Positions 15,136 to 57,661 of a DNA stretch of 59,802 nucleotides are shown here, one piece after another; within the stretch, counting starts at the first letter, position 1, and every line of letters begins with the position of its first letter. Under the pieces are notes generated by a model. That model worked only from the letters and a program-made list of their open reading frames with translations, was not told the DNA's origin and made no database searches. This DNA comes from Enterobacteria phage JenP2, in the sequence record NC_028997.1. One strand, 5' to 3'. The position numbers and the translations under genes were made by a program.

Positions 15136-15719
15136 TGATATTTAGCCCATTCAGTGAATCCGTGATGGACGCGATGGACAAAGATGTGGTTACTATGGTG
15201 CTCGCTGTAGCAATTTATTTCGATAGTGGTACAACTAGAGTTCATTCTGGTACTGGCACTATTGTAATAGATGGTCAAACATTTCTTGGTGTTGGTACAT
15301 TGGGTCAAGTGGGTAGTGTTACAGAAGAAAATACTACCAGCTCTAGCACAATGAGCCTTACATTAAGTGGGCTTGATATGACGCTTGTTGGTCAGACACT
15401 TAACGAAAATTGTATAGGTTCCAACGTGACAGTTTATGTTGGTGTGATGAACGAGCAAGGTCAAGTGGTAAGTGCTAACGTTCTGTTCGAAGGTTTTATA
15501 AGTGACACCGCAATGCAAGCGGGAAACACTAATGCAATATCCTATGTTGTGTCAAACGTGTTTGAAAAATGGTCGACAGGATTACCGGATCGTTATACAG
15601 ATGAAAGTCAACAACGATTACATCCAGGGGATCGCTTCTTCAGATATGTTGCACAGATGGCTGAACGTTCTATTTATTGGGGAAATAAAAAAGACGCTCC
15701 GGGGTTCCATTATGAATAA
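15135..15719 (+). CDS. minor tail protein
   Basis: 194 aa; start overlaps the upstream stop. Confidence 0.5.
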   Translation: MIFSPFSESVMDAMDKDVVTMVLAVAIYFDSGTTRVHSGTGTIVIDGQTFLGVGTLGQVGSVTEENTTSSSTMSLTLSGLDMTLVGQTLNENCIGSNVTVYVGVMNEQGQVVSANVLFEGFISDTAMQAGNTNAISYVVSNVFEKWSTGLPDRYTDESQQRLHPGDRFFRYVAQMAERSIYWGNKKDAPGFHYE

Positions 15720-16128
15720 GACACCAGGCTGGCAGACAAGATTGTTGACCACAGTTAAACAGCTCGAGGCAGTTCCTTTTGAATGGGGACAGAATGATTG
15801 TTGCATCTTTGCGGCTAAATGTATTGACGCTCAATATGGTACTGCAATTAGTCAAGATGTTATTGGTAAGTACAATAGTGAAATCAGCTGCAAACGCTTT
15901 ATGATTAGTCGAGTAAAAGACACGTCCTTACCTAAAGTGTTGGATTCCTTTTTACCAGTGCGAGTAGACCCAAGATTAGCTCAGAGGGGTGATGTTGTCA
16001 TGTTTAATACGGACAATGGATTGACAGCCGGTGTATTGTGGACTGGTTGCGTTTGGGCTATGGGCCCGAGTGGGGTCACTACATTTAAGCGTGCCGACAT
16101 AAAATTAATTGACGCATGGAGGGTTTAA
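15712..16128 (+). CDS. putative tail assembly protein (NlpC/P60-like Cys motif)
   Basis: 139 aa from the ATG at 15712 (ATGA overlap with the upstream stop); QNDCCIF motif with a downstream His; position equivalent to lambda K. Confidence 0.4.
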   Translation: MNKTPGWQTRLLTTVKQLEAVPFEWGQNDCCIFAAKCIDAQYGTAISQDVIGKYNSEISCKRFMISRVKDTSLPKVLDSFLPVRVDPRLAQRGDVVMFNTDNGLTAGVLWTGCVWAMGPSGVTTFKRADIKLIDAWRV

Positions 16129-29425: not shown

Positions 29426-30055
29426 TTACTTTTTACACGCTTCAAGAAATTCCCGACGCCATGTATCACCAGTCACGTCCGGTAATACACCATCGCCCAA
29501 TGCAGTACGTCCGCGGAATGCTTTAGTGATGGTTGAGCTGCCACATACCTGTTTAACACCGCGCGACTCCATGCACATATGTTTTGCATCGATGTAGACG
29601 CACACAGCTTTCGGCTCTAAATGGTCACGGATGGCGTCCGCAATCTGGTTAGTTAGACGTTCTTGGACTTGCAAACGTCGAGCGAAAGCATCAACTACCC
29701 GAGATAACTTGCTGAGACCGACAATTTTTCCATTTGGAACATATCCAACCACCGCATGACCAATAATAGGAGCCATGTGATGCTCACAATGACTATATAC
29801 AGGGATATCGCGGACGATGACCATTTCATCGCAGTTTTCCCCACCATCTTCAAATGTCTTGAACAGGGATGCGATATCGACAGAATAACCCCCGAACCAT
29901 GTAGCATAAGCCTTAGCTACACGATCTGGAGTTTCTACTAAACCTTCACGAAGATCAGTAGTATCGTACCCTTCAATAACAGATAGAAGATTTCTTACAG
30001 CTACTTGAATTTGATGCTGATGAGATTTCAACTCTAAATAATTTACATTTGACAT
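29426..30055 (-). CDS. folE: GTP cyclohydrolase I
   Basis: 209 aa; conserved VYSHCEHHMAPI active-site motif. Confidence 0.9.
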   Translation of the reverse strand: MSNVNYLELKSHQHQIQVAVRNLLSVIEGYDTTDLREGLVETPDRVAKAYATWFGGYSVDIASLFKTFEDGGENCDEMVIVRDIPVYSHCEHHMAPIIGHAVVGYVPNGKIVGLSKLSRVVDAFARRLQVQERLTNQIADAIRDHLEPKAVCVYIDAKHMCMESRGVKQVCGSSTITKAFRGRTALGDGVLPDVTGDTWRREFLEACKK

Positions 30056-30081
30056 GGTTTACAGTTTCCTTGTGTGGTCAA

Positions 30082-30615
30082 TTATTTGCAATAGTTAACA
30101 TGGCATTTGGACGTTTCTTCAATGGTGCATTCTATCAATTCAACACCATATTGGTCAAGCAGTTGAGGACCAATTACGTCAACCATATATGCAGCTAAGT
30201 TTTCCGCAGTTGGGTTGAATGGTAAAGCTACCAAAGAATTAAAGAAAGGATCGTAATCTTCATCCGTCACTAAATTGTTCTCACGTGCAAACTTAGTTGA
30301 TGCAACAACAATGAGCGAATTAATCATGCTGTCTTGTTCCCAATGCAGGAACTTATGATCCCAGTTATCTTCCAACCACTGGCAAAGCGTAGTTTTAACC
30401 ACACTAAAGTCGATAACGCGACCTACGTCGTCCAAGGATCCTTCTAGAGCAAATCCACTTACAGACTTAACGTAGCCTTCCGACAATGTTTTCTTTGGTG
30501 CAACTTTAAAATGGAACTTATAGTTGTGACCATGAAGATGGCGACACTTACTTTCATGCCCTACGACACGATGCCCAGCGCAAATCTCATGTGAACGAAT
30601 AACAGTGTAACCCAT
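30082..30615 (-). CDS. queD: 6-carboxy-5,6,7,8-tetrahydropterin synthase
   Basis: 177 aa; zinc-binding CxxxHGH motif (CRHLHGHNYKFHF) and N-terminal CAGHR. Confidence 0.85.
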   Translation of the reverse strand: MGYTVIRSHEICAGHRVVGHESKCRHLHGHNYKFHFKVAPKKTLSEGYVKSVSGFALEGSLDDVGRVIDFSVVKTTLCQWLEDNWDHKFLHWEQDSMINSLIVVASTKFARENNLVTDEDYDPFFNSLVALPFNPTAENLAAYMVDVIGPQLLDQYGVELIECTIEETSKCHVNYCK

Positions 30616-30617
30616 TT

Positions 30618-32033
30618 TTATTCCTCGTTTTCGTATTTAATAACTTCTTGTGCGTTATTAATATTAAACGCAGTCCGACGCATCATGCAAGGGCCACAAG
30701 TACCGCAATGTAGATCCCCGTTACGGTAACAGCTCCAGGTGTGCTCCAACGGGGCCCCTAAACGTAGGCCTGTAGCGACAATTTCGTGCTTCATTAAGTT
30801 ACCTACTGGCATGAGCACTTCAACGCGCTTACCGTCGCCTACAGCGAATGGTAGCACCTGATTAAAGCGGTTAATAAACTCAGGCTCGTTGTCCGGATAG
30901 GCTCCAGCTTCTTCTAAGTTGTTACCAAGAACAATATAGTCGAAACCATTAGCTTCTGCGTATGCAGTAGCAACAGAAAGCATCACAAGGTTACGGGCTG
31001 GAACCCATTCATGGGCAAACTCAGCGCCTTCTTCACCGCCCGCAATTGCAGCATCTTGATCAAATAACGGGCTATCTTTCTTATCGTAAATTGGGATTGG
31101 GAATTCAACTAATGGAACTTCCATCACTTCCGCAATTTTACGAATAGCCTTCAACTCGTTAGTTTCAGCACGACAACCATACTGGAAGTTAATCAAAGTA
31201 ACATCCAAACCGTTGGACTTACACATCTGAGCTGCCACTGTGCTGTCCATACCACCACTGGCGACAACTAACGCCCGTTGAGTCTGCTTATTTGGAATAA
31301 GATCGACCTCGCTGCATACACCAGTCGATGTGACCACATTACAGGTGTAGGGTTTCAACATTTGCTTAATAGCGCGGGTAGGTAACATGTCTTCCTGACT
31401 GGCGAAATACATACCCGTATGAGTCTTACCAATCCAAATTGGACGGTAATTACATGCTGCAAACACATACCCAGGAATTGAATCATGCGTTGCAAGGATT
31501 GCGTAACTCCCTTTCAACTTGCGAACAACTTCATGGAATACGTTATAAAGGTAATTTAAATCAGACAGACACATTTCATCTGTTGAAAGTGTGCATTCTG
31601 CTAACTGTTCAACAATTGCAGCACTATCAATCTTAGTCTGCAGTGCATAGGTACGAAGGTCTTTATCGTTCGCAATAGTACCGTTATGAACAATAGTCCA
31701 ACTATCGAGATGATACGGTTGTTGATCCCATTCGTTCTTGTCGACGACCCACTCTGTAGTCGGTTCAGCGCGAGCGTTACCAATCATTGTGAAGCTACCA
31801 ATAGCTCCAGCGTGAGATGCAATGCGCCCGACTTTAACAAGACGTTCCAGCGATGTTTCCTTACCGACGCTGACGATACGTTGCGGGTGTATACTGTGGT
31901 CACCATGCGTGAAGCGTACACCAAGACCATCACGACCACGGTTAATACTAGCTTTAATAAGATCGTCAATGTCGTTACGGATGATAAGACTTTCAGGTTG
32001 ACCGTTAGTAATGACACCAAAGATAGAGCACAT
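30618..32033 (-). CDS. queC: glutamine amidotransferase-QueC fusion (7-cyano-7-deazaguanine synthase-like)
   Basis: Start set to the Met of MCSIFGV (class II amidotransferase N-terminal Cys, as in AsnB) with AAGGAAGG SD; C-terminal QueC PP-loop VVASGGMDS and Cys cluster CYRNGDLHCGTCGPC. Confidence 0.85.
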   Translation of the reverse strand: MCSIFGVITNGQPESLIIRNDIDDLIKASINRGRDGLGVRFTHGDHSIHPQRIVSVGKETSLERLVKVGRIASHAGAIGSFTMIGNARAEPTTEWVVDKNEWDQQPYHLDSWTIVHNGTIANDKDLRTYALQTKIDSAAIVEQLAECTLSTDEMCLSDLNYLYNVFHEVVRKLKGSYAILATHDSIPGYVFAACNYRPIWIGKTHTGMYFASQEDMLPTRAIKQMLKPYTCNVVTSTGVCSEVDLIPNKQTQRALVVASGGMDSTVAAQMCKSNGLDVTLINFQYGCRAETNELKAIRKIAEVMEVPLVEFPIPIYDKKDSPLFDQDAAIAGGEEGAEFAHEWVPARNLVMLSVATAYAEANGFDYIVLGNNLEEAGAYPDNEPEFINRFNQVLPFAVGDGKRVEVLMPVGNLMKHEIVATGLRLGAPLEHTWSCYRNGDLHCGTCGPCMMRRTAFNINNAQEVIKYENEE

Positions 32034-32034
32034 A

Positions 32035-32793
32035 TTATTTACCTTCCTTAACCATTTCAATTTCACGCTCAACGGATACAATAATATCGTTGAGGTCTTC
32101 CAGTAAGTCTTTATGTCCACGTTCACCAGCACACAGCACTTTCTTCAGTGCATGTTGCATGGGCCCACTGGTTACATTAAATGCTTTAATTACATCGTAC
32201 ACGTCAACCCATACATCAATTTCAATTGGGCTACCGTTAATATCATGCGATTCAAAAGTCTTGATTTTGCGCATATATTTATTTGGACGTGGAGCTTTAA
32301 TATCCTGGATACAATCCGTGTCGATAAACGCTTCATTAATGGATACTTCCGGATCACCTTCTTTGTTACGATCAACTTTAAAGACGCTCGTAAGTACATC
32401 TTCCATGATACCAGCTAATTTCTGAGTAGATGTTGTGTACTTCTTCACATTTTCTGCTTCTTCTGCTGCTTTCTGACTTCTACTGACAGAAGTATTAATA
32501 CGCCATTTATAAAGTGCATTACTTGGAGGCGTCACATGCGTGTTGTAAACTGTCTTTAAACCCATGAGATCTTGTCCATCCATACCTTCAATAAAGACAG
32601 TAAGTGTAGGACTGCTATCATTCAAGACATCTACTACATATCCTTCTCGAATTACAGATGCAAGAGCTGCATGGGACGCAGCCTGTGAAGCTGTGGTCAC
32701 ATAATGTTTTACAAATCCGTCTTCATCGAACAGACACTGGTTTAACACATTTTCTGGAACAATTTCACCGAGTAATTGAACGTGCTTATTCAT
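32035..32793 (-). CDS. hypothetical protein embedded in the 7-deazaguanine cluster
   Basis: 252 aa; stop abuts the gat-queC start (translational coupling); no motif recognised. Confidence 0.55.
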   Translation of the reverse strand: MNKHVQLLGEIVPENVLNQCLFDEDGFVKHYVTTASQAASHAALASVIREGYVVDVLNDSSPTLTVFIEGMDGQDLMGLKTVYNTHVTPPSNALYKWRINTSVSRSQKAAEEAENVKKYTTSTQKLAGIMEDVLTSVFKVDRNKEGDPEVSINEAFIDTDCIQDIKAPRPNKYMRKIKTFESHDINGSPIEIDVWVDVYDVIKAFNVTSGPMQHALKKVLCAGERGHKDLLEDLNDIIVSVEREIEMVKEGK

Positions 32794-32905
32794 AATAATT
32801 TACCTTATTAGTTGAACATACCATGTCTTCTAGCGCGTTGACCGTCACCAGCATAATGGTCATTAGCCACAGCAATCATCCACGCGTTTTTGAATATGTA
32901 TAACT

Positions 32906-33670
32906 TCACTCTACACCTAAATATTTGTGGATCTGCAATTGCACGATGTAATTGTGCTTGATTGCATATTTAACGACAGCTTGGGCGTTTGCTTTATTAG
33001 CATCGTCGTCCTGTTCATCCATAGGTTGAAGATAAATGTTACCTTTAAAGTGTACAGGCGGACGTGCGATAAATGGTGTCGCACGGTGATCCAGTGCCTG
33101 CAACGGTAATCCATCTTCCTCGTTGACGTTTCCGCTTTTCATTACATATTTGAAAGCATCCGCTCGAGCGGAAACGCTAGGGTGAACCTTTGCTGCCTTA
33201 GGACTACATACTACCACACAGTTATAGTTGAGTTCACGCGGGATAGGCATAGTTCCGTTAGTTTCAACCTGTACACGATATCCTTTCATATCGATAAGGT
33301 AGTTGATAAAATTAACAACTTCAGGTTGACGGAAAGGTTCGCCACCAGTAATAACAACTAATTTAGTCTTGGCTTCACCAGTGACACGAACAATCTCCTG
33401 CCAAATATCACCGTGACTCATCTTCTTACGATTAGACGTATAGTTTGTATCGCAACCTGGGCATTGCAAGTTGCAACCAGCTAATCGGACAAATACGGCA
33501 GGTTGACCACAAAATGGGCCTTCGCCTTGAATGGTATGAAAAATGGAATGTACGTCAAGAATACCACGTTCACGAACTAACTTCTCAGGATCCTGAGTAT
33601 TAATAATTTTCATATGATTTCCAAATTTGGCTTGAGCCCAGTGGTGGGCGATAATGGCTTGTGCAAACAT
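32906..33670 (-). CDS. queE: 7-carboxy-7-deazaguanine synthase (radical SAM)
   Basis: Radical-SAM Cys motif CNLQCPGC; start set to the Met with a GAGG SD (the track ORF extends to 33694). Confidence 0.8.
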   Translation of the reverse strand: MFAQAIIAHHWAQAKFGNHMKIINTQDPEKLVRERGILDVHSIFHTIQGEGPFCGQPAVFVRLAGCNLQCPGCDTNYTSNRKKMSHGDIWQEIVRVTGEAKTKLVVITGGEPFRQPEVVNFINYLIDMKGYRVQVETNGTMPIPRELNYNCVVVCSPKAAKVHPSVSARADAFKYVMKSGNVNEEDGLPLQALDHRATPFIARPPVHFKGNIYLQPMDEQDDDANKANAQAVVKYAIKHNYIVQLQIHKYLGVE

Positions 33671-33738
33671 TTGAACCTCGGGGTAAGATAACAAAGGGGC
33701 AGTAAATGCCCCTTCTGAGTTTCCGAAGTGTCTACAGA

Positions 33739-35383: not shown

Positions 35384-35623
35384 TTAATCCTTCCACCACT
35401 CGGGCCCACAATACATTCCACGTAGTTCTTCACGAATGTAATTTTCAAACTCGTCTTCAATGTTGATTACTTGACTTTCGTGAAAAACTGCCACACCATG
35501 AATAAATCGTTTAGCTCTTTCCCCTTTAATTACACCGTAACCTAACTCCTCCCACTCTTTAAAAGTCTTCCATTCACCTTCTTCCGGTGAATGGTCGTCA
35601 CTTCTAAACGTCATCTTTACCAT
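35384..35623 (-). CDS. hypothetical small protein
   Basis: About 80 aa from the Met of MVKMTF (GAGG SD); downstream of the helicase. Confidence 0.4.
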   Translation of the reverse strand: MVKMTFRSDDHSPEEGEWKTFKEWEELGYGVIKGERAKRFIHGVAVFHESQVINIEDEFENYIREELRGMYCGPEWWKD

Positions 35624-35630
35624 ATAAGCC

Positions 35631-37634
35631 TCAAAATGGAATGTCGTCATCAAAATCTGGTGGTAGCTCTTTACCGTTACCAGTAAGAATATGTTGATTA
35701 GACGTAGAATGCAATACTGTCGTACGGGAATCAGTCTGTTCATCTTCATCAAACTTATTCGTATAACTGCCACCAAACTGGGACAGACCATTCATTGCTG
35801 CGATCTGTACAACCGGACGTTCGTTTGTTGCTTCTTTCTTACCGAATTCACTACCATCGTAACAACTATTCAACACTTCAGGGAATTTACCCTTTAAATT
35901 GACATAAATGTGCGTCGGTACACGAAGTTGGCTGACCACATTGAGGGCTTCGTCAATGTTAGCTGGGATTGCCAAGCTACAATGCTCACGCCACCAGTTA
36001 CGCGCTTTCTTACCTGCAAAGCCAGTATGGAACAGGCAGATGTATTGTTGAATAGTTTGTGATCCGCAAAGATAATCAACACGAAGTGTCGGTGGCTTAG
36101 AACGGTCACCCCTGTTCTCATGACGATAGTAACTCACCATATCAACTTTCAACACTTCAGTAACTGGTAAATCGTTCTTGATAATAGCTTTCGTACTTGC
36201 ACTCGCCATCAGTTTCTTCTCAAAAGTAAACTCATGACCGCAATAACCAGCACGACACGCTTTATTATTTGTAATTGTATAACCTAATCCTTGTAGATAG
36301 AGTATTTCTTCATGAGACATGCTGCTTGTGTCGAATGGTTTTAACCCACCACAGTAGCGAACTGACGCATGGTTCCATGTCTTACATACCGGGCATTCTT
36401 TGACAGGTGCAGCGGATTTTCCTTTCTGTCCTGGACGCTTAGGAATTACAGGGTCGTTAATAGGCCCAAGACGTCTCGTATTACCTGCGTAATCCAATAC
36501 AAGACAGTTCTGTTTGTGCGAAGCCGAGATAGCTTGCAAACGACCTTCCGTTGTGGTCAGATCAAAACCATCAGCATAATCAGGTCGAGTACCACGTCCA
36601 AGCATTTGAACCCATAGGCGGGAAGATTGAGACGGTCGCATACCAATTATTAAGTCAAGACCCGGATGGTCAAAACCTGTCGTTAATACGTTGTTGTTCG
36701 CTATTGCCTGCAAACGACCAGCTTTAAAGTCAATAAGGTACTGGTCACGCAAGGCTTTCGGTGTATCACCAGTTACAACTTCACAACTAATACCGCGCTC
36801 ATTGAGATAGTCTTTGACATCTTTTGCATGGTCTACACCAGCGCAAAAGATAAGCCAACTCATTCTATTCTCTTCTTCCGCAATACTAATTGCATCATCT
36901 AATAAATGGCGCGTTACATCAGGGTCATTTACAACCTTCTGAAGTTCACTTTCAATGAACTCACCGCCTCGAGTATGAACACCACTTACATCATACTCTT
37001 TCTTTGTTTTACGTGGTACTAACGGAACCAGATAACCTTCATCAATGAACCAGTTGAAGCACTCTACGGTACACGCGTTAAATACAATTTCATCAAATAG
37101 AGCGTTAGGTGCATAATCATCCTTGATAATAGAACCAAAACCAAGACGCCAACTTGTAGCAGTGAGACCGATAATCTTTAGATATGGATTCTTTTCACGA
37201 ATCTGCGCAAAGAACTTCTGATAACTTGTTTGCTGATTTGGACTAATAAGGTCACATTCGTCAACTATAATAATATCAACGTCCTCAAAGTATTTAGCTT
37301 GTTTTGCAACAGACTGAATACCTGCGAACGTTATCATTGCGTTCTTATCTTTGCGACCCATACCAGCACTATAAATACCAGTCGGTGCTTCAGGCCACAA
37401 CTTCTTGAATTTATCGTGGTTCTGGTCTATCAATTCTTTTACGTGAGTAATTACCATCATGCGGGTACTACCCCAGTTATCATGAATTGTCTTTAATAGA
37501 CCAGCAATTACAAGGGACTTACCAGTCCCTGTAGGCAACAAGATAACAGGATTTCCTGACTTTTCACCATGCTTGATGAAATAGCGCAATGTACTATTTA
37601 CAGCTTCTTGCTGATAATCACGTAGTTTGAACAT
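35631..37634 (-). CDS. SF2 DEAD/DEAH-box DNA helicase with C-terminal SSB-tip-like tail
   Basis: 667 aa; motifs LPTGTGKS (I), VDECD (II), LTAT (III), TTGFD (V), QMLGRGTR (VI); zinc-ribbon-like CPVCK...C; ends in DFDDDIPF. Confidence 0.8.
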   Translation of the reverse strand: MFKLRDYQQEAVNSTLRYFIKHGEKSGNPVILLPTGTGKSLVIAGLLKTIHDNWGSTRMMVITHVKELIDQNHDKFKKLWPEAPTGIYSAGMGRKDKNAMITFAGIQSVAKQAKYFEDVDIIIVDECDLISPNQQTSYQKFFAQIREKNPYLKIIGLTATSWRLGFGSIIKDDYAPNALFDEIVFNACTVECFNWFIDEGYLVPLVPRKTKKEYDVSGVHTRGGEFIESELQKVVNDPDVTRHLLDDAISIAEEENRMSWLIFCAGVDHAKDVKDYLNERGISCEVVTGDTPKALRDQYLIDFKAGRLQAIANNNVLTTGFDHPGLDLIIGMRPSQSSRLWVQMLGRGTRPDYADGFDLTTTEGRLQAISASHKQNCLVLDYAGNTRRLGPINDPVIPKRPGQKGKSAAPVKECPVCKTWNHASVRYCGGLKPFDTSSMSHEEILYLQGLGYTITNNKACRAGYCGHEFTFEKKLMASASTKAIIKNDLPVTEVLKVDMVSYYRHENRGDRSKPPTLRVDYLCGSQTIQQYICLFHTGFAGKKARNWWREHCSLAIPANIDEALNVVSQLRVPTHIYVNLKGKFPEVLNSCYDGSEFGKKEATNERPVVQIAAMNGLSQFGGSYTNKFDEDEQTDSRTTVLHSTSNQHILTGNGKELPPDFDDDIPF

Positions 37635-38585
37635 TTACTCACCGTAATAATCTGCTGCTTCGTATTGACCACATGCTGCCATCTGATCTTCCTTCGTTAA
37701 TACACCTTCAGTTCCATCGGTGATGTATGCAGTAGCGGAAGCTACTTTGATTGCACATCTCCAGGTTCCATCTTCAAGCGGATAAGAGTGCTTACAGGTG
37801 CGACAGTTAACTTCAGGCATCTTATTGTTGCGACATACCGCTTTGTGGTCACACCATTTGCATTTATAGTAAGACTTACTTTCATTAATCTTAGGTGGTG
37901 GGCATTCTGCCAGTGCAATTACAAATCCACGGTCTTTGTAGCGTTCTGCGGTTTCTTTATCAAACGGTACAAGCTCTGCCCAAATCTCGTCCGTGTTCTT
38001 ATTAACTGCAATATAAAGAGCGGCTGGGAGCCCATAGTACAACATGTATTCCTGCATCTGAACATAGTGCTCCCATTTGGATTCCATCACACCATTAACA
38101 ACAAGTTTCTTGAACGAATCATTATTGTGCGTTTTCATCTCCGTTAAGATTGGTGTAGAAGGTTGCGGCATGTCAGGACAACCAATGACAATACCATCTA
38201 TCGCGGAGCCAAAGTGCCCATTGAGATAGCTAACTCGATACTGGCTGCCATTTTCGTCTTGCTGGATGACTTGCATACCGGCGGTAAGTAATAAGGCCAC
38301 GAAGCGACCTTCTTCAAGATGCCCGCGATTGAATAGACGTAAGGTTTTACCGTTAAAGTGTGGTTTTGTTGCCCATCGCCACCCGTAGAAGATTGCTCTA
38401 CTACACTCTTGCCCGATAAGACTAATCCCAAGATGCGAACGGAATCCGCCATCTCCCTCTCTATATGCGTCTTCAATATGCGGTAATACTTTTCCGAGCC
38501 ATACTCTGTAAGCGGATCCTTGATCTCGTTCAATACAGTCATTGAATAACTCCATGGTCTTAGTAGCAGGATAAAAATGTGGCAT
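37635..38585 (-). CDS. PD-(D/E)xK exonuclease with C-terminal Cys cluster (RecB/Cas4-like)
   Basis: 316 aa; E-M-K and QxxxY-like motifs (ILTEMKT, VQMQEYMLY); C-terminal CKWCDHKAVC...CRTC cluster. Confidence 0.6.
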   Translation of the reverse strand: MPHFYPATKTMELFNDCIERDQGSAYRVWLGKVLPHIEDAYREGDGGFRSHLGISLIGQECSRAIFYGWRWATKPHFNGKTLRLFNRGHLEEGRFVALLLTAGMQVIQQDENGSQYRVSYLNGHFGSAIDGIVIGCPDMPQPSTPILTEMKTHNNDSFKKLVVNGVMESKWEHYVQMQEYMLYYGLPAALYIAVNKNTDEIWAELVPFDKETAERYKDRGFVIALAECPPPKINESKSYYKCKWCDHKAVCRNNKMPEVNCRTCKHSYPLEDGTWRCAIKVASATAYITDGTEGVLTKEDQMAACGQYEAADYYGE

Positions 38586-38647: not shown

Positions 38648-39577
38648 TTACTGTGCAGCGTCATCGCCTTCAGTGGAACGTTTCCACGGTGGAGTCTTGG
38701 TCTGAGCTGCTTTAGCGATATCGTCCTGGACTTCAGGTTCTGCATGGTTAGCAGTACCAGTGTTCTGAGCTTGAGTTTGCGGTTGCTCTGCTCCAGGCTG
38801 TACCTGCTGAGTTGCCCAGTTAGGCTGTTGTGTGGTTTGTTGCTGCGGCTGCTGCGCACCAGTAGCCCACGGTTGAGATTGCGCCGCACTGTTAAAATCA
38901 ACTGTTCCAGACTGCTGCGGCTGCTGCCCAAATGCACCCGGGAAACCCTGCTGCTGTTGTTGCTGCGGTTGCTGGAACCCCTGAGTCTGAGGTTGTTGCT
39001 GCTGTTGCTGCGGCTGCTGCCCAAATGCACCCGGGAAACCCTGCTGCTGTTGTTGCTGCGGTTGCTGAGTACCACCGAACGCACCGCCACCAAATGCTGG
39101 AGACTGTGCTGCCGCTGCCGGAGTTGATTTAGGCAGGTTAGCCACATCCGCTTTAGTTGCGTATACAACGCCTTCCATATTATCAATTGCTTGATAAATC
39201 TGAGGTTCGTTGTTTGGCTCATAGCCAGGTTGCTGACGAACTTTTACTTTCAGGTTGAACGGAATACCGTGCAGTTGTTCGGTATCGTTCCAAACTGGAA
39301 CTTTAACAGCACGAGATAACTCTGCCAGTTCTTCCATTGCAATCTGTACAGCGACAGGGTTCGCGTTTTTGACGTTGTAACCGCCAAACATTACACGACC
39401 AGCAAAATCACCCTGCATAATCTTAAACTGAAGATTCAGACGCGCACCGCCTGGAGTTTTAGTCGGTTTGATCTCAGAGTTTACAATCTGAACAACATAC
39501 CAACCAGCGGGCATCAAACTATTGTGTTGACGCTCTGCGTGTTGTCCAGCGTTAAATTGCATTCCTAAACCGGCCAT
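38648..39577 (-). CDS. putative ssDNA-binding protein with Q/P/G-rich linker
   Basis: 309 aa; N-terminal ~150-aa globular domain then a Q/G/P low-complexity region resembling an SSB linker; no terminal DIPF. Confidence 0.5.
   Translation of the reverse strand: MAGLGMQFNAGQHAERQHNSLMPAGWYVVQIVNSEIKPTKTPGGARLNLQFKIMQGDFAGRVMFGGYNVKNANPVAVQIAMEELAELSRAVKVPVWNDTEQLHGIPFNLKVKVRQQPGYEPNNEPQIYQAIDNMEGVVYATKADVANLPKSTPAAAAQSPAFGGGAFGGTQQPQQQQQQGFPGAFGQQPQQQQQQPQTQGFQQPQQQQQQGFPGAFGQQPQQSGTVDFNSAAQSQPWATGAQQPQQQTTQQPNWATQQVQPGAEQPQTQAQNTGTANHAEPEVQDDIAKAAQTKTPPWKRSTEGDDAAQ
38923..39067. repeat. intragenic near-perfect direct duplication (~60 bp units, 84-bp period)
   Basis: The unit GCTGCGGCTGCTGCCCAAATGCACCCGGGAAACCCTGCTGCTGTTGTTGCTGCGGTTGCTG occurs twice, encoding the repeated peptide QQPQQQQQQGFPGAFGQQPQQ. 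Confidence 0.6.
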
Positions 39578-40323
39578 TATTGTACCCCTTTGATTTTGTT
39601 AATGATTGCACCGAGATGTGGATATTCCATCTGTTCTAACGAACCAGAACGATCTTTACATACATTTGACAGATCTGGTCTGGTCAGCAGATAACGAAAA
39701 TCTGCTTGAGTATTTTGGTCTTTACCAACACTAATTTTGAAAACTTCATCAAAAAAGTATGGTAATTCTGGACCTAATTTTGCACCAGGCATAGAAGGGC
39801 CATAAGACGTAATACCTGTCAACTCGTCCTTATTACGGGACATTTTAGCTGCCATGTATACGTTAAGTCCAGGGATATCTCGAAAAGCACGAACCAAAGT
39901 TTGCATCTTCTCAATGAGATCCCCATAAGCCTGACGCGGATCTTTCACAGTACGCTTCGCATTGTTAAGGCACTTTTCAGCAATCTCAGTAAGTGAATCC
40001 AGCGCAAGAGACTGAAAGCGCGGTAAACCATCTTCACCTACAGGATTGTTTGCAGGGTTAGTTGCCCAAACATAAGCCTGCTCCACATCCTGAATATTTT
40101 CAACCGTAATGGTTGGAATATCGTAACAGATATCTGGTCTGTTTTCACCAAACACACGAGCAATGTTATTCGGTGTTAAAGACAGAAGCCCAGACTCTGC
40201 AGAAATCAGCAACGGTCTTGGAAGAGTTGCTGTAAGCATGGTCTTACCCATACCGGATTCACCATACACAAGCATCTTGACACCAGTGTCCAGAACTGCC
40301 TGCGCGGTAGTTGTAAATTGCAT
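39577..40323 (-). CDS. RecA-fold ATPase (Sak4-like recombination protein)
   Basis: 248 aa; Walker A GESGMGKT; adjacent to the SSB-like and exonuclease genes. Confidence 0.55.
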   Translation of the reverse strand: MQFTTTAQAVLDTGVKMLVYGESGMGKTMLTATLPRPLLISAESGLLSLTPNNIARVFGENRPDICYDIPTITVENIQDVEQAYVWATNPANNPVGEDGLPRFQSLALDSLTEIAEKCLNNAKRTVKDPRQAYGDLIEKMQTLVRAFRDIPGLNVYMAAKMSRNKDELTGITSYGPSMPGAKLGPELPYFFDEVFKISVGKDQNTQADFRYLLTRPDLSNVCKDRSGSLEQMEYPHLGAIINKIKGVQ

Positions 40324-45756: not shown

Positions 45757-45785
45757 ATGGGCGCATATAGCGCCCATTTTTATAA
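45757..45785. terminator. bidirectional rho-independent terminator
   Basis: ATGGGCGC-atata-GCGCCCAT stem followed by TTTTTAT on the + strand, with a T-rich tract on the minus side; between convergent genes. Confidence 0.6.
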
Positions 45786-48329
45786 CTTAATAACCTCGTT
45801 CATTCTTTCAATGTCTACCAAATAACATTTCATTCTCGGTGGTGTAAACTCCGCACCGAAGAAACTTGAAAAGTCCATTGGCCTCATCTCAGTAAGAACT
45901 TCCATAGACATCAAACCATAGATTGTATTGTCTATGACCTGCAAGATGTTGTCATTTCTTGTTTGTTTAAAAGCCTTGAACTGGCGACACACTGTGCATA
46001 GATCACTTCGTGTGACAATAAACGCGTCCTTAAACATCGGGAACCGTTTATACACACCAGCTTTAACTTCTCCATCCAAGAACTTCTTGATGGAGTTGAG
46101 CATTATCTTCTCACGACTTGTACTATCCGTAGAACCAATCTGCCCACTGTTACGCTTCTCTAAGAAACGCTCGTTACCCTGATCAATAAAGGACTCAGCC
46201 CAACGATAATGTTCCATAGTAACAACAGGTCGTTCACTGTTATCCGCAACAGCAAGAAGAGAGGCAATACGCAATACCTTTAGCGCCTTTCTTGTGTACA
46301 TCTGACGGATAACTTCGTCTTGTACCTGCTCACCATCATTACCGCTATTCAGGAACTTCGCGACAACATTATCAAGATTATCAAATGCTTCGTGTACCTC
46401 TGCTTCCATTTCAACATAACATGGAGCGGTTCCTGACATAATACGCACAGCTTGTTTATAGATAGCTCCAATAGTGCGCAGGATTGCTTCTGGATATTCC
46501 AGAAGCATACTCTTATTCATCAACGGGCGGTTAGCTGTACATTCCCATGCAATAATACGAGACATGAAACCACTTGACATCATGCGGTCATCAACGTTCC
46601 CGTAAAATTCATCTGGTGTCGTTTCACCTGCAAAACTATACGCCTTAACCTTACCGCCAGCTGTCGTATTATCTTTACTAGAGTGCTTTGAACCGCCAGA
46701 GAAAGCATAGAAATGCCCCTTATCATAAAGGGAAAGCATTTCATCCATAATGTCTTTAGCTTTACCGACTTCCATCTTACCGTTACGGAAAAACGCACCG
46801 ACTTCAGTCTTATAGTTAATAGATGAGCCACAAGACATAACAGATGTATCCATTATGACGTCTTTGCGCAATGCAGCATCAGACGCATAGGTACTAGTAT
46901 CTAAAACACGTTCAATGCCGAATATCTGCTGCCCATCCTGACCGCCGTAATTGGATACTTGAGAAAGAATAGTTTCAATGTTAGAGCGAAACGCTTCTTT
47001 ACCAATACCAGAACGTGCAATTAATACAAAGTAGTTGTTCAGACCGCTTCGTGTGACTGTGTTCCACGCCTTACCGCACATACCACTGAATAAAGCAAGA
47101 GCAGACAGAATACTAATGTCTTTAATAGGCAACAAGCTCGCTTTATACATATTACGAGCAACTTCGCCCATAAAGCCTGGAGGCCAAGCTAGACCATCCG
47201 CCTGCTCTTCAGTGTAATTACCATCTGTGGTCAACACTTCTTCAGGTGGGCGTTCTGGTGTAGTTGCTTGACGTAGTTTTTCCGTGCGCTCTATAGCTGC
47301 ATTAACGTTATTCTGAACTATCTGCATAAGTCCCATAGATTTAACATGGGCATCATAGCGATAGTTGCGAATCATTCTATCCAGGTGGTACGGACGTTTA
47401 ATTTTTTCACCAGGCATACGACGTGAATCATCATAACGACTACTCATTGGTGAATACATGAATAGACGTCTTACCTGGAAATTGTACTTACTCTTAAAGC
47501 AAAGAAAGTCAATTAATGCAAATTCTGCTTCAGACTGAGAAGGGAAACAACGTTCGCCGATAGAAGTATCAACTTCTTCAGCTCTCCAACGACCTTCCCA
47601 TAGTTGTTTAAACAATGTTCCGTTTTCTTGTTCGCACAACTGGATATAAACATCCTGGTCTTCCATTGCATATGGGTCATTACTGAAATCTTCTTCAGTA
47701 AGTTCCAGCATTTGGAAGCCATCAGACTCATTAATCTCACTCATCTCAGACATAAGTTGATGAATGAGATTAGCGATATACCCTTCGCTTTCACTGCCTG
47801 GAGCACCAGACACAGTACGCGGAGTAATATCCCAGTGATCGCCTGTACAGATAATAAAACGATACTGTGAATACACTTCCACACCATCACGGCGCTTACC
47901 AGCCTGAGGGATGGAATAAATCCATGTGTGCAACCCATCACCACTTCTGGAAATTTCCGTATAGCTATGGAACGATTCAACAATCTTCTTATATCGTTCA
48001 CCAGCAACTTTCTTTTCCATTTCAGACATGGTATCTTTAATGTCCATGTCTATACAACAGAACGGGTCACTTGGAAGTAGATAGAAACCTAAACGCAAGT
48101 TATGTCCAATCTCGTTATAATAACGAATGCAGCGTTCAGCATCTTCAAAAGACATTAATAAATGTAGGTTAGACGGCTTTTTATCATTGCCGTCTTTACG
48201 AAGTGGAACCATATCCCCTAAATCATCGTCCCACACATAAGGTTGTTTTTCTGATGATGTACCTGGATGGAAACCGCAGACAGCCCACTGTTCGTATTGT
48301 TTAATTTCTTGAGGAAAAAGTTCCAGCAT
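45780..48329 (-). CDS. putative DNA primase/helicase (primase-polymerase-like N-terminus, P-loop NTPase C-terminal half)
   Basis: 849 aa; P-loop-like segment VLIARSGIGKE in the C-terminal half; large multidomain protein in the replication block; domain assignment is tentative. Confidence 0.55.
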   Translation of the reverse strand: MLELFPQEIKQYEQWAVCGFHPGTSSEKQPYVWDDDLGDMVPLRKDGNDKKPSNLHLLMSFEDAERCIRYYNEIGHNLRLGFYLLPSDPFCCIDMDIKDTMSEMEKKVAGERYKKIVESFHSYTEISRSGDGLHTWIYSIPQAGKRRDGVEVYSQYRFIICTGDHWDITPRTVSGAPGSESEGYIANLIHQLMSEMSEINESDGFQMLELTEEDFSNDPYAMEDQDVYIQLCEQENGTLFKQLWEGRWRAEEVDTSIGERCFPSQSEAEFALIDFLCFKSKYNFQVRRLFMYSPMSSRYDDSRRMPGEKIKRPYHLDRMIRNYRYDAHVKSMGLMQIVQNNVNAAIERTEKLRQATTPERPPEEVLTTDGNYTEEQADGLAWPPGFMGEVARNMYKASLLPIKDISILSALALFSGMCGKAWNTVTRSGLNNYFVLIARSGIGKEAFRSNIETILSQVSNYGGQDGQQIFGIERVLDTSTYASDAALRKDVIMDTSVMSCGSSINYKTEVGAFFRNGKMEVGKAKDIMDEMLSLYDKGHFYAFSGGSKHSSKDNTTAGGKVKAYSFAGETTPDEFYGNVDDRMMSSGFMSRIIAWECTANRPLMNKSMLLEYPEAILRTIGAIYKQAVRIMSGTAPCYVEMEAEVHEAFDNLDNVVAKFLNSGNDGEQVQDEVIRQMYTRKALKVLRIASLLAVADNSERPVVTMEHYRWAESFIDQGNERFLEKRNSGQIGSTDSTSREKIMLNSIKKFLDGEVKAGVYKRFPMFKDAFIVTRSDLCTVCRQFKAFKQTRNDNILQVIDNTIYGLMSMEVLTEMRPMDFSSFFGAEFTPPRMKCYLVDIERMNEVIKL

Positions 48330-56816: not shown

Positions 56817-57170
56817 ATGAGCTTGCAACGTTTTGACAATGCAGAACTCGCGTGTGAATTTGCAAAGCGCAAGTTCGCTAAAACAGGTACGCCGCGATGC
56901 GTGCACGCGGCTATTGGGCAAAATGGGGCAAAGTATTGGTACGTTGGTACAGTAGCTCAGATCAAGCGAAGATTCGCGACTACGCTCGAAATGCGCCGGC
57001 TTGGGTCCCCTACACTTGTACGAAACAGGCACTTGGATAAAGAGGAAATTTATCAATTTCTCAGAAATTACACTGGTAAAGAGAATAGATTTCAGGTTGC
57101 AGCGAAAGAGTTTAATATTGGTCTTTCCACTGCTTATAAAATTTATCACATATATGGGCGTTTAATATGA
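56817..57170 (+). CDS. putative DNA-binding protein (C-terminal HTH)
   Basis: 117 aa; C-terminal FQVAAKEFNIGLSTAYKIY resembles a helix-turn-helix. Confidence 0.45.
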   Translation: MSLQRFDNAELACEFAKRKFAKTGTPRCVHAAIGQNGAKYWYVGTVAQIKRRFATTLEMRRLGSPTLVRNRHLDKEEIYQFLRNYTGKENRFQVAAKEFNIGLSTAYKIYHIYGRLI

Positions 57171-57661
57171 CCGCAATTGCTTATCGTAATGGGATATTAG
57201 CTGTAGATCGACAGGTTACATGGGGTAATATTGCAACGACTACGAATAAAGTTCATACTATCAGTATTCCAGGGATTGGTCTGTGTCTTGTTGCCATGTC
57301 TGGTAAACTACGTGCTGTAGATGACATTGTAGAACATTTACAAACTACGTCACGTGGACGCAAAGAACCTTTCTCAGATTTAAATCCAGATTCGCGTTAT
57401 GGTATTGCTGTGACGCAGGAACTTGTCGTGTACCCCATCTATGGTGATGGTAAATTAGGTCTACCGGACACTAACGAATTTATTGCGGAGGGTAGTGCGT
57501 TTGAGTTCTTGATGGGTACAATGGCGGCAGGTTGCAGTGCGGAAGATGCTGTGCAATTGGCGTGTGTATATTGCGATAGCTGTGGTCAGGGTGTCAACTT
57601 CTATGACGTAGCTTATACTCTGAAAATGGCGCAGTGTAAACCCGAGGAGGAACCATTTTGA
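57167..57661 (+). CDS. HslV/proteasome-beta-like Ntn hydrolase
   Basis: 164 aa; N-terminus MTAIAYRNGILAVDRQVTWGN parallels the recalled E. coli HslV [24 protein letters not shown], with Thr at position 2; Lys about 28. Confidence 0.5.
   Translation: MTAIAYRNGILAVDRQVTWGNIATTTNKVHTISIPGIGLCLVAMSGKLRAVDDIVEHLQTTSRGRKEPFSDLNPDSRYGIAVTQELVVYPIYGDGKLGLPDTNEFIAEGSAFEFLMGTMAAGCSAEDAVQLACVYCDSCGQGVNFYDVAYTLKMAQCKPEEEPF

Follow-up and report, generated by a model that had tools for sequence, protein, structure and literature searches.

A phage helicase ends in the C-terminal tip of SSB

The window analyzed here is the 59,802-nucleotide sequence of Enterobacteria phage JenP2 (NC_028997.1). On its minus strand, positions 35631..37634 (stop codon included) encode a 667-residue superfamily 2 (SF2) helicase that, judged by sequence and structural modeling, is a member of the RadD (YejH) family. 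The protein ends in DFDDDIPF, the last eight residues of SSB, the Escherichia coli protein that binds single-stranded DNA. This tip is conserved in the helicase family and terminates a tether that is predicted to be disordered, and several relatives carry it on a different protein of the same gene neighborhood. We give roughly even odds that the tip occupies, in trans, an SSB-tip pocket on a partner protein and so couples the helicase to that partner.

The stop codon lies at 35631-35633 and the tip (residues 660-667) at 35634..35657. Read on the minus strand, 35631-35666 gives GAG CTA CCA CCA GAT TTT GAT GAC GAC ATT CCA TTT TGA, and the protein ends in ELPPDFDDDIPF (E L P P D F D D D I P F) before the TGA stop. 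The range 35631-35660, singled out in an earlier note on this sequence, comprises the stop codon, the eight tip codons and one proline codon. Against the published C-terminal sequence of E. coli SSB (SSB-Ct), MDFDDDIPF (PMC10238739), the match is indeed eight residues out of eight. The helicase tail belongs to this motif class: its acidic run leads into a C-terminal Ile-Pro-Phe whose carboxylate is free.

Among the 271 open reading frames (ORFs) of at least 50 residues in the window, only the helicase has a C-terminus of the form [DE][DE]x[ILV]P[FW]. One further match to the pattern, EEAIPW, lies one residue short of the end of a 62-residue ORF at 15618-15806. An HslV-family peptidase-like ORF (phrog_1040; 57167-57661, plus strand) also has an acidic tail with a terminal Pro-Phe, KPEEEPF. 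We considered its PEEEPF ending as a second tip in the window and judged it unrelated and probably coincidental.

In 14 phage records of GenBank, the helicase protein matches at 99% identity or more from residue 1 through the tail to residue 667. The DNA around the gene (2301 bp) is 90-98% identical in 16 such records, and the cluster of helicases at 90% identity has 205 member sequences. Because an identical tail recurs across many independent genomes, it is not an artefact of sequencing or assembly. A stop codon misplaced by a sequencing error, named in the earlier note as something that would undo its reading, is likewise dismissed by the retention of the tail in the 14 records.

Sequence and modeled structure place the helicase in the RadD family

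The ORF had been described as containing all SF2 motifs, and this description holds. Pfam recognizes ResIII/DEAD and Helicase_C domains, PHROG assigns the protein to phrog_16 ('DNA helicase'), and the motif residues G38-K39-S40, D125-E126, A159-T160 and Q343/G346-R347-G348/R350 are invariant. BLASTP aligns residues 1-421 with E. coli RadD at 37% identity (E=2e-73), and a sequence search of the PDB returned RadD (6jde) as the best match, at E=6.8e-64, with the next match at 3e-14. An AlphaFold2 (AF2) model built from a 114-sequence alignment has a mean predicted local distance difference test (pLDDT) score of 87.6. In a Foldseek search with this model, the top eight matches were all RadD structures (E~1e-35, ~645 columns, template modeling (TM) scores of 0.45-0.54), and the first match after them came at E=1e-15.

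The predicted domains follow RadD along their length. Two RecA-like motor domains (approximately residues 1-405; 36420..37634, minus strand) hold the SF2 motifs and the equivalent of the region that forms the SSB-Ct pocket of RadD. Next comes a zinc-ribbon region (36225..36404, minus strand) with four Cys residues, C414, C417, C428 and C465, that are invariant across 114 homologues and in tip-bearing and tipless helicases alike; its CPVC aligns with the CPAC of E. coli RadD. The folded C-terminal domain (approximately residues 490-620; 35775..36167, minus strand), with pLDDT mostly above 90, falls within the Foldseek alignments to RadD. Common to the two proteins are thus the 37% identity of the motor domains, the zinc ribbon and the fold of the C-terminal domain. 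Neither Pfam nor PHROG returned an SSB or OB-fold family for the helicase. Since there is no OB-fold match and the fold is RadD-like, the protein is not an SSB, and what it has in common with SSB is the tail alone.

One 995-residue homologue (P0031) has an intein, with Hint and homing-endonuclease Pfam domains, inside the Walker A loop between PTG and TGKS; it still ends in ...EEDFDDIPF.

The tip is conserved at the end of a disordered tether

A survey of related helicases for the same tail, proposed earlier as a check, found that 181 of 235 distinct family helicases (all sources pooled) end in PF. Over 184 tails of the family, the consensus runs D(-7) F/L/M/D(-6) D D D I P F, and bona fide phage SSBs, sampled independently, have the same positional consensus. 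About 116 of the best 120 homologues, which extend down to 44% identity, end in an acidic run followed by [IV]PF. The tip is kept down to ~32% identity, in Lentisphaerae-associated loci.

This conservation stops abruptly upstream of the tip. Residues 621-659 (35658..35774, minus strand) form a predicted intrinsically disordered linker between the C-terminal domain and the tip, with pLDDT of 34-39 over linker and tip together (residues 621-667). Across 113 homologues, mean identity to the window helicase is 0.83 for the last six residues, 0.07 for the linker and 0.51 for the core. The 11 closest relatives show the same profile (last eight residues, 0.98; linker, 0.33; core, 0.73). From the DG[ST]xF[GN] motif (residues 593-598 in the window) to the C-terminus, a stretch that takes in ~20 folded residues as well as linker and tip, family members have 15-112 residues, with a median of 41. 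Four homologues (P0059, P0087, P0098 and P0105) contain a second, internal copy of DDDIPF 20-30 residues upstream of the terminal one. In these proteins the motif has been duplicated in tandem inside the disordered tail, which suggests avidity for a partner in trans.

As modeled, the tail has the architecture of SSB, in which a folded body is followed by a disordered linker and the tip. The helicase and E. coli SSB have in common the last eight residues, their place at the extreme C-terminus, the disordered linker and the consensus of an acidic run, a hydrophobic residue at -6 and Ile-Pro-Phe. However, E. coli SSB is an OB-fold tetramer, whereas the phage carrier is an SF2 helicase with one tip per polypeptide.

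Could the resemblance be a coincidence, a mis-called stop or a neutral relic with no function? The motif is short, but an exact match to a C-terminal 8-mer is expected by chance in only ~20^-8 of cases per ORF. The tip is conserved in the 181 tails beside a linker that cannot be aligned, it is identical in many independent genomes, and it is kept on another polypeptide where the helicase has lost it (described below). We regard this explanation as barely credible; the conservation data already refute it, and they mark the tip as a selected short linear motif of the SSB-Ct type.

Related phages carry the tip on other proteins

With the family alignment we retrieved 80 viral loci and 72 genomic ones. 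Among the viral set, the tip is present on 58 helicases and missing from 20, and 19 of these 20 form one clade in a neighbor-joining tree. All 19 are directly followed by a gene for a 62-78-residue protein with a C-x2-C...C...C pattern (phrog_23504; CxxC protein below) that usually ends in W..[DE][IV]PF, and the stop codon of the helicase usually overlaps the start codon of this gene. Five further tipless helicases, in contigs of bacterial genomes, have a 75-123-residue ORF of the CxxC family downstream, bringing the total to 24 of 24; in these contigs, too, the family accompanies tipless helicases only. All its proteins have an [IV]P[FY] tip at the C-terminus, in most cases with an acidic residue before it. 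Conversely, a hidden Markov model (HMM) of this small family found no member in the 58 tip-bearing viral loci. Among named phages, orf25 of Vibrio phage VpKK5 (L279:7745-7960) and gp66 of Rhizobium phage RHEph06 (L280:7676-7930) are CxxC proteins ending in ...HWQIDIPF and ...DIGDIPF, respectively. CxxC-family members measure 62-84 residues, apart from one ORF of a genomic locus called at 123 residues; their loci are L043-L080 (for example, L066:5201-5401 and L043:4547-4744).

A different carrier directly follows a tipless helicase in Pseudomonas phage Ab26 (L275:5875-7038, annotated 'replicative clamp'), Stenotrophomonas phage Bhz58 (L276:5640-6803), Rhodobacter phage RcSpartan (L277:5665-6894) and a metagenomic locus (L128:6511-7686). 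In these loci, which include Septimatrevirus and Titanvirus, a clamp-like protein of phrog_947 ends in ...EDDIPF, ...SDDIPF, ...DDEIPF or ...DDDIPF. In a Brucella Tb-like phage, a 201-residue protein of unassigned family, encoded upstream of the helicase, ends in ...DLDDEIPF. In two loci (L134 and L180), the tip is on the DUF669 SSB itself, together with the PPW motif described below. The helicase is the carrier in Seurat (...DDPDYVPF), PaMx25 (...DLDDDIPF) and Moraxella phage Mcat24 (...IDDMPF).

To see how widely the motif is distributed, we sampled viral ORFs of at least 60 residues that end in DDDIPF followed by a TAA stop, the only stop codon included. Only 33 of the 113 such ORFs among the matches listed have a Pfam SSB domain. 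Most of the other carriers in this set belong to divergent SSB-like families by PHROG; the remainder include RadD-like helicases, a primase (phrog_21866, L193), a DnaB-like primase/helicase (phrog_239, L144) and the phrog_947 clamp-like protein. Several small families with DDDIPF also occur among the matches listed (L082-L200), such as the 73-76-residue proteins of phrog_1811 in L086, L096, L102, L127, L156 and L186.

Taken together, the sequences of these loci indicate that the tip relocates among carriers: helicase, clamp-like protein, small CxxC protein and SSB.

One clade from Acetobacteraceae has an arrangement of its own. Its RadD-like helicases (L213-L227, L250 and L258) lie in large Roseomonas-type chromosome contigs and have a tipless C-terminus, GQYTEIVAARFV. 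Each is followed by a Cys-containing protein of ~116 residues, which in L214 ends in ...MGEPPF, and then by a primase-polymerase.

The SSB-like protein of the module has a different tail

In the window, the helicase gene is the last of a module that encodes a Sak4-like ATPase, a DUF669 SSB, a Cas4 nuclease and the helicase. The SSB-like member (309 residues; 38648..39577, minus strand; Pfam DUF669; phrog_6015 'single strand DNA binding protein', E=3e-98) has a Gln-rich tail that ends in TPPWKRSTEGDDAAQ. It has no tip, just as had been noted earlier for the neighboring SSB-like protein. A survey of tails from related loci instead revealed a PPW motif near its C-terminus (38684..38692, minus strand). 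Helicase-bearing related loci supplied 84 distinct DUF669 tails. In 79 of them, P[PA]W lies within the last 16 residues, mostly with 3-12 residues after the motif, and none of the 84 ends in [IVL]PF.

Phage HK620 offers a guide to what this tail may do. It also has a Sak4-like ATPase next to a DUF669 SSB, and its SSB ends in NDYPPF, six residues that this SSB requires in order to bind and stimulate Sak4 (PMC5928155). The PPW motif of the window protein resembles this ending, and by analogy the PPW tail probably serves Sak4. In HK620, however, no tip is described on a protein other than SSB. A division of labor is likely: the PPW/PPF tail would be for Sak4, whereas the DDDIPF tag, borne by a different module protein, would be for something else. 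Since the tail of the phage SSB differs, the canonical hub peptide would be supplied by another protein of the module, here the helicase.

A further possibility, docking onto an SSB OB fold, was already mentioned in the earlier note: the acidic tip may bind the DNA groove of an OB fold, either that of host SSB or that of the phage DUF669 protein, and help the helicase to displace or reposition SSB. Acidic SSB tails are reported to bind their own OB fold weakly (discussed in PMC5928155). Nevertheless, the strict conservation of Ile-Pro-Phe-COOH is the signature of docking into a pocket and not of a purely electrostatic DNA mimic, and we consider OB-fold docking very unlikely.

Residues of the RadD SSB-Ct pocket are partly conserved in the phage family

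E. coli RadD is itself a reader of the SSB tip. It binds SSB-Ct with a Kd of ~5 μM; the binding pocket lies on motor domain 1, where R21, R49 and R145, each of them essential, frame it, and the SSB-Ct peptide alone stimulates the ATPase of RadD (PMC10238739). This ATPase is reported to be DNA-independent and SSB-stimulated, and the enzyme to speed RecA strand exchange (PMC10238739; PMC8887467). RadD ends in ...LAHELRG, with no tip; it is a receptor of SSB-Ct, whereas the phage helicase carries the ligand.

This relationship makes self-docking a serious rival, because the homologue of the phage protein binds SSB-Ct and is stimulated by it. The tip would occupy the RadD-type pocket on motor domain 1 of the helicase, in cis or between molecules, and would act either on the ATPase, by stimulating or gating it, or by promoting head-to-tail assembly. 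The enzyme would then be independent of the SSB tip that the phage SSB lacks. Several pocket residues are consistent with such a site. F19 of the phage protein is Phe in all sequences but one, which has Tyr; K153, equivalent to RadD R145, is K/R in 120 of 121 sequences; R58, equivalent to R51, is R/K in 117 of 121; and the positions of L44, L113 and L147 hold L/I/F. These conserved residues stay so in tipless helicases whose neighbor, a CxxC or clamp-like protein, has the tip, which would fit neighbors docking onto the helicase.

Two of the three pocket arginines, however, are not conserved in the phage family. The position of R21 holds Q/G/R/E/S, often Glu in the tipless clade, and that of R49 holds N/G/S, beside a 5-residue insertion at the pocket rim. 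The AF2 model shows no rise in confidence at the tip (the last blocks score 39, 35, 34, 38 and 36), although a model of the monomer cannot exclude docking in cis. Moreover, a permanently tethered activator would give no regulation, and there are carriers of the tag other than RadD, namely primases, DnaB-like helicases and SSBs. On this evidence we think self-docking unlikely, if well worth keeping in view.

Candidate receptors for the tip

Docking in trans remains our preferred reading, and both this mode of docking and the candidate receptors are ones that we infer. The RadD-family helicase would bear, on a disordered tether of ~40 residues, a functional SSB-Ct-type peptide that is acidic and has Ile-Pro-Phe and a free carboxylate at its end. 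The peptide would dock into the basic-rimmed hydrophobic pockets that recognize SSB tips, and docking would tie the helicase, along with the branched or gapped DNA on which it acts, to at least one partner protein. The variety of carriers (helicase, clamp, small protein and SSB), the duplicated tips and the presence of the tag on primases and DnaB-like helicases argue that the receptor lies outside the carriers.

Since the peptide is identical to that of the host, host SSB-interacting proteins such as the clamp-loader chi subunit, PriA, RecG and ExoI should be able to bind it. A protein of the phage replisome is an equally open candidate. The window encodes replication genes of its own: a divergent B-type polymerase, a phrog_947 clamp-like 'processivity factor', an AEP/D5-type primase, a ligase, a FEN/RNase H protein and a RusA-like resolvase. 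The polymerase lies at 25432-27405 and the primase at 45780-48329. The clamp-like protein (27402-28394) ends in ...VIVGFRL, without the tip, and no clamp loader was recognized among the annotated ORFs of the window. It is an attractive, if speculative, idea that the host clamp loader is recruited through chi to load the beta-like clamp of the phage. That the phage has its own replication proteins and that relatives carry the tip on other proteins argue for a tag of the whole module rather than a trick specific to the helicase.

The phage polymerase is a candidate by analogy with phage T7, where the tails of gp4 and gp2.5 both end in Phe. The acidic C-terminal tails of the T7 helicase bind T7 polymerase and tether the helicase to it, and the gp2.5 SSB has a similar tail (PMC8472574). 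This is a precedent for a phage helicase with an SSB-like acidic tail, but the likeness would be one of function only. T7 gp4 is a hexameric DnaB-like superfamily 4 (SF4) helicase-primase whose tail is not DDDIPF, whereas the protein described here is not a hexameric SF4 enzyme; it is SF2, RadD-like, and has a host-type SSB-Ct.

Identity with the host peptide would also suit a decoy. In this alternative, the tip titrates host SSB-interacting proteins (ExoI, RecJ, RecQ or PriA) off host SSB or phage DNA, thereby protecting phage intermediates or stopping host repair. Such competition is chemically plausible, and since the phage SSB is tipless, phage single-stranded DNA would not attract the host partners. 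A BASEL coliphage protein, Bas52_0087, likewise has a host-type tip, a C-terminal FDDDIPF, and has been proposed as an interface with host factors that process single-stranded DNA, such as ExoI; interference with ExoI is its proposed effect, and it triggers DRT10 (bioRxiv 10.64898/2026.04.29.721553). That protein, however, is SSB-like, with OB folds, and not a helicase. A decoy has no need to be fused to a large, presumably low-copy enzyme, nor to stay linked genetically with the place of the helicase or clamp in phages that are distant from one another, and the tails of Seuratvirus (DDPDYVPF) deviate from the host consensus despite an E. coli host. The decoy role therefore seems improbable to us.

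A broader version of docking in trans, which we hold only tentatively and rather doubt, treats the SSB tip as a transferable hub tag of phage modules. The DUF669 tail would have become specialized for Sak4 and the tip re-assigned to a neighbor that works at DNA junctions. The carriers would be the helicase in Nonagvirus, Seuratvirus and Nipunavirus, the beta-clamp-like protein in Septimatrevirus and Titanvirus, and the CxxC protein in VpKK5 and RHEph06. The tag might then plug a replisome built by the phage into host machinery that reads SSB tips, for example chi or PriA at recombination intermediates.

Several observations weigh against a partner in trans. The RadD homology leaves room for docking in cis or onto another copy of the helicase. 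Some more distant relatives, namely the Acetobacteraceae prophage-like loci, Salmonella phage UPF_BP2, Bcep43 and XPP9, showed no tip within the flanks examined; the tag is therefore not indispensable to the helicase family. The complementary distribution of tips in the viral loci amounts to few independent events, because the tipless group with CxxC proteins is a single clade. Finally, all cultured hosts are Proteobacteria with one and the same SSB tip, DDDIPF, which makes covariation between host and phage tips uninformative; host labels of contigs from metagenome-assembled genomes are unreliable.

Thus, the earlier suggestion that the helicase mimics SSB survives in part. The selected SSB-Ct-type tail and its predicted disordered tether stand, while mimicry toward host partners, by recruitment or titration, and docking onto an OB fold are not established.

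Genome context of the helicase

The window belongs to Nonagvirus, the 9g-like coliphages of the Queuovirinae, and its best DNA match is vB_EcoS_ESCO3 (98.3%). Directly upstream of the helicase is a gene for a Cas4-domain exonuclease (37635..38585, minus strand; phrog_1990, E=2e-113) whose stop codon abuts the helicase ATG; the two genes adjoin in nearly all related loci. Beyond the DUF669 gene lies that of the Sak4-like (AAA_24) ssDNA-annealing ATPase (39577..40323, minus strand; Pfam AAA_24, E=7e-23; phrog_124 'Sak4-like ssDNA annealing protein'). The order Sak4, DUF669, Cas4, helicase is kept in nearly all retrieved loci.

Downstream, a small ORF of 79 residues (MVKMTF...CGPEWWKD; 35384..35623, minus strand; phrog_24889) starts 7 nt after the helicase stop and has no tip. 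It has a weak match, below the Pfam cutoff, to ArdcN, the ssDNA-binding N-terminal domain of ArdC. The ORF is present in ESCO3, JenP1, BRET and SE1. Other DNA takes the place of this region in 9g, JenK1 and ChristophMerian, whose similarity to the window begins right at the stop codon of the helicase. Its ending, CGPEWWKD, led us to consider it as a tipless homologue of the CxxC protein (GCPEW..EIPF). We rejected this idea: the two fall in different PHROGs (24889 and 23504), the ORF lacks the Cys pattern, and the CxxC-family HMM has no match in tip-bearing loci although L002, L003 and L005 carry the 79-residue ORF.

A cluster of 7-deazaguanine DNA-modification genes, typical of the Queuovirinae, occupies 28403-33694 on the minus strand. 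It includes a tRNA-guanine-transglycosylase-like DpdA (phrog_887), and its other ORFs presumably correspond to GTP cyclohydrolase I, QueD, a QueC-type amidotransferase fusion and QueE, which they resemble.

Discussion

The SSB C-terminal tip is a central address label of bacterial genome maintenance and a drug target, and it is usually viewed as a property of SSB itself. The SSB-Ct motif class, the SSB-like helicase tail of T7 and a coliphage SSB-like protein with FDDDIPF were already known. In the open-access papers searched we found no description of the canonical tip on RadD-family phage helicases, nor of its relocation among helicase, clamp, CxxC protein and SSB.

Here, a phage helicase bears the exact host label whose reader is its own cellular homologue. 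The shuttling of this label among helicase, clamp, SSB and a very small zinc-type protein argues that it is a modular, selectable part that viruses rewire. For annotators and for designers of SSB-Ct inhibitors, the finding is a caution that tip-bearing proteins are far more diverse than SSBs. The cultured phages of this set, among them Nonagvirus, Seurat, PaMx25, Ab26 and VpKK5, provide handles on how replisomes are recruited and on how RadD-type motors are controlled by a peptide.

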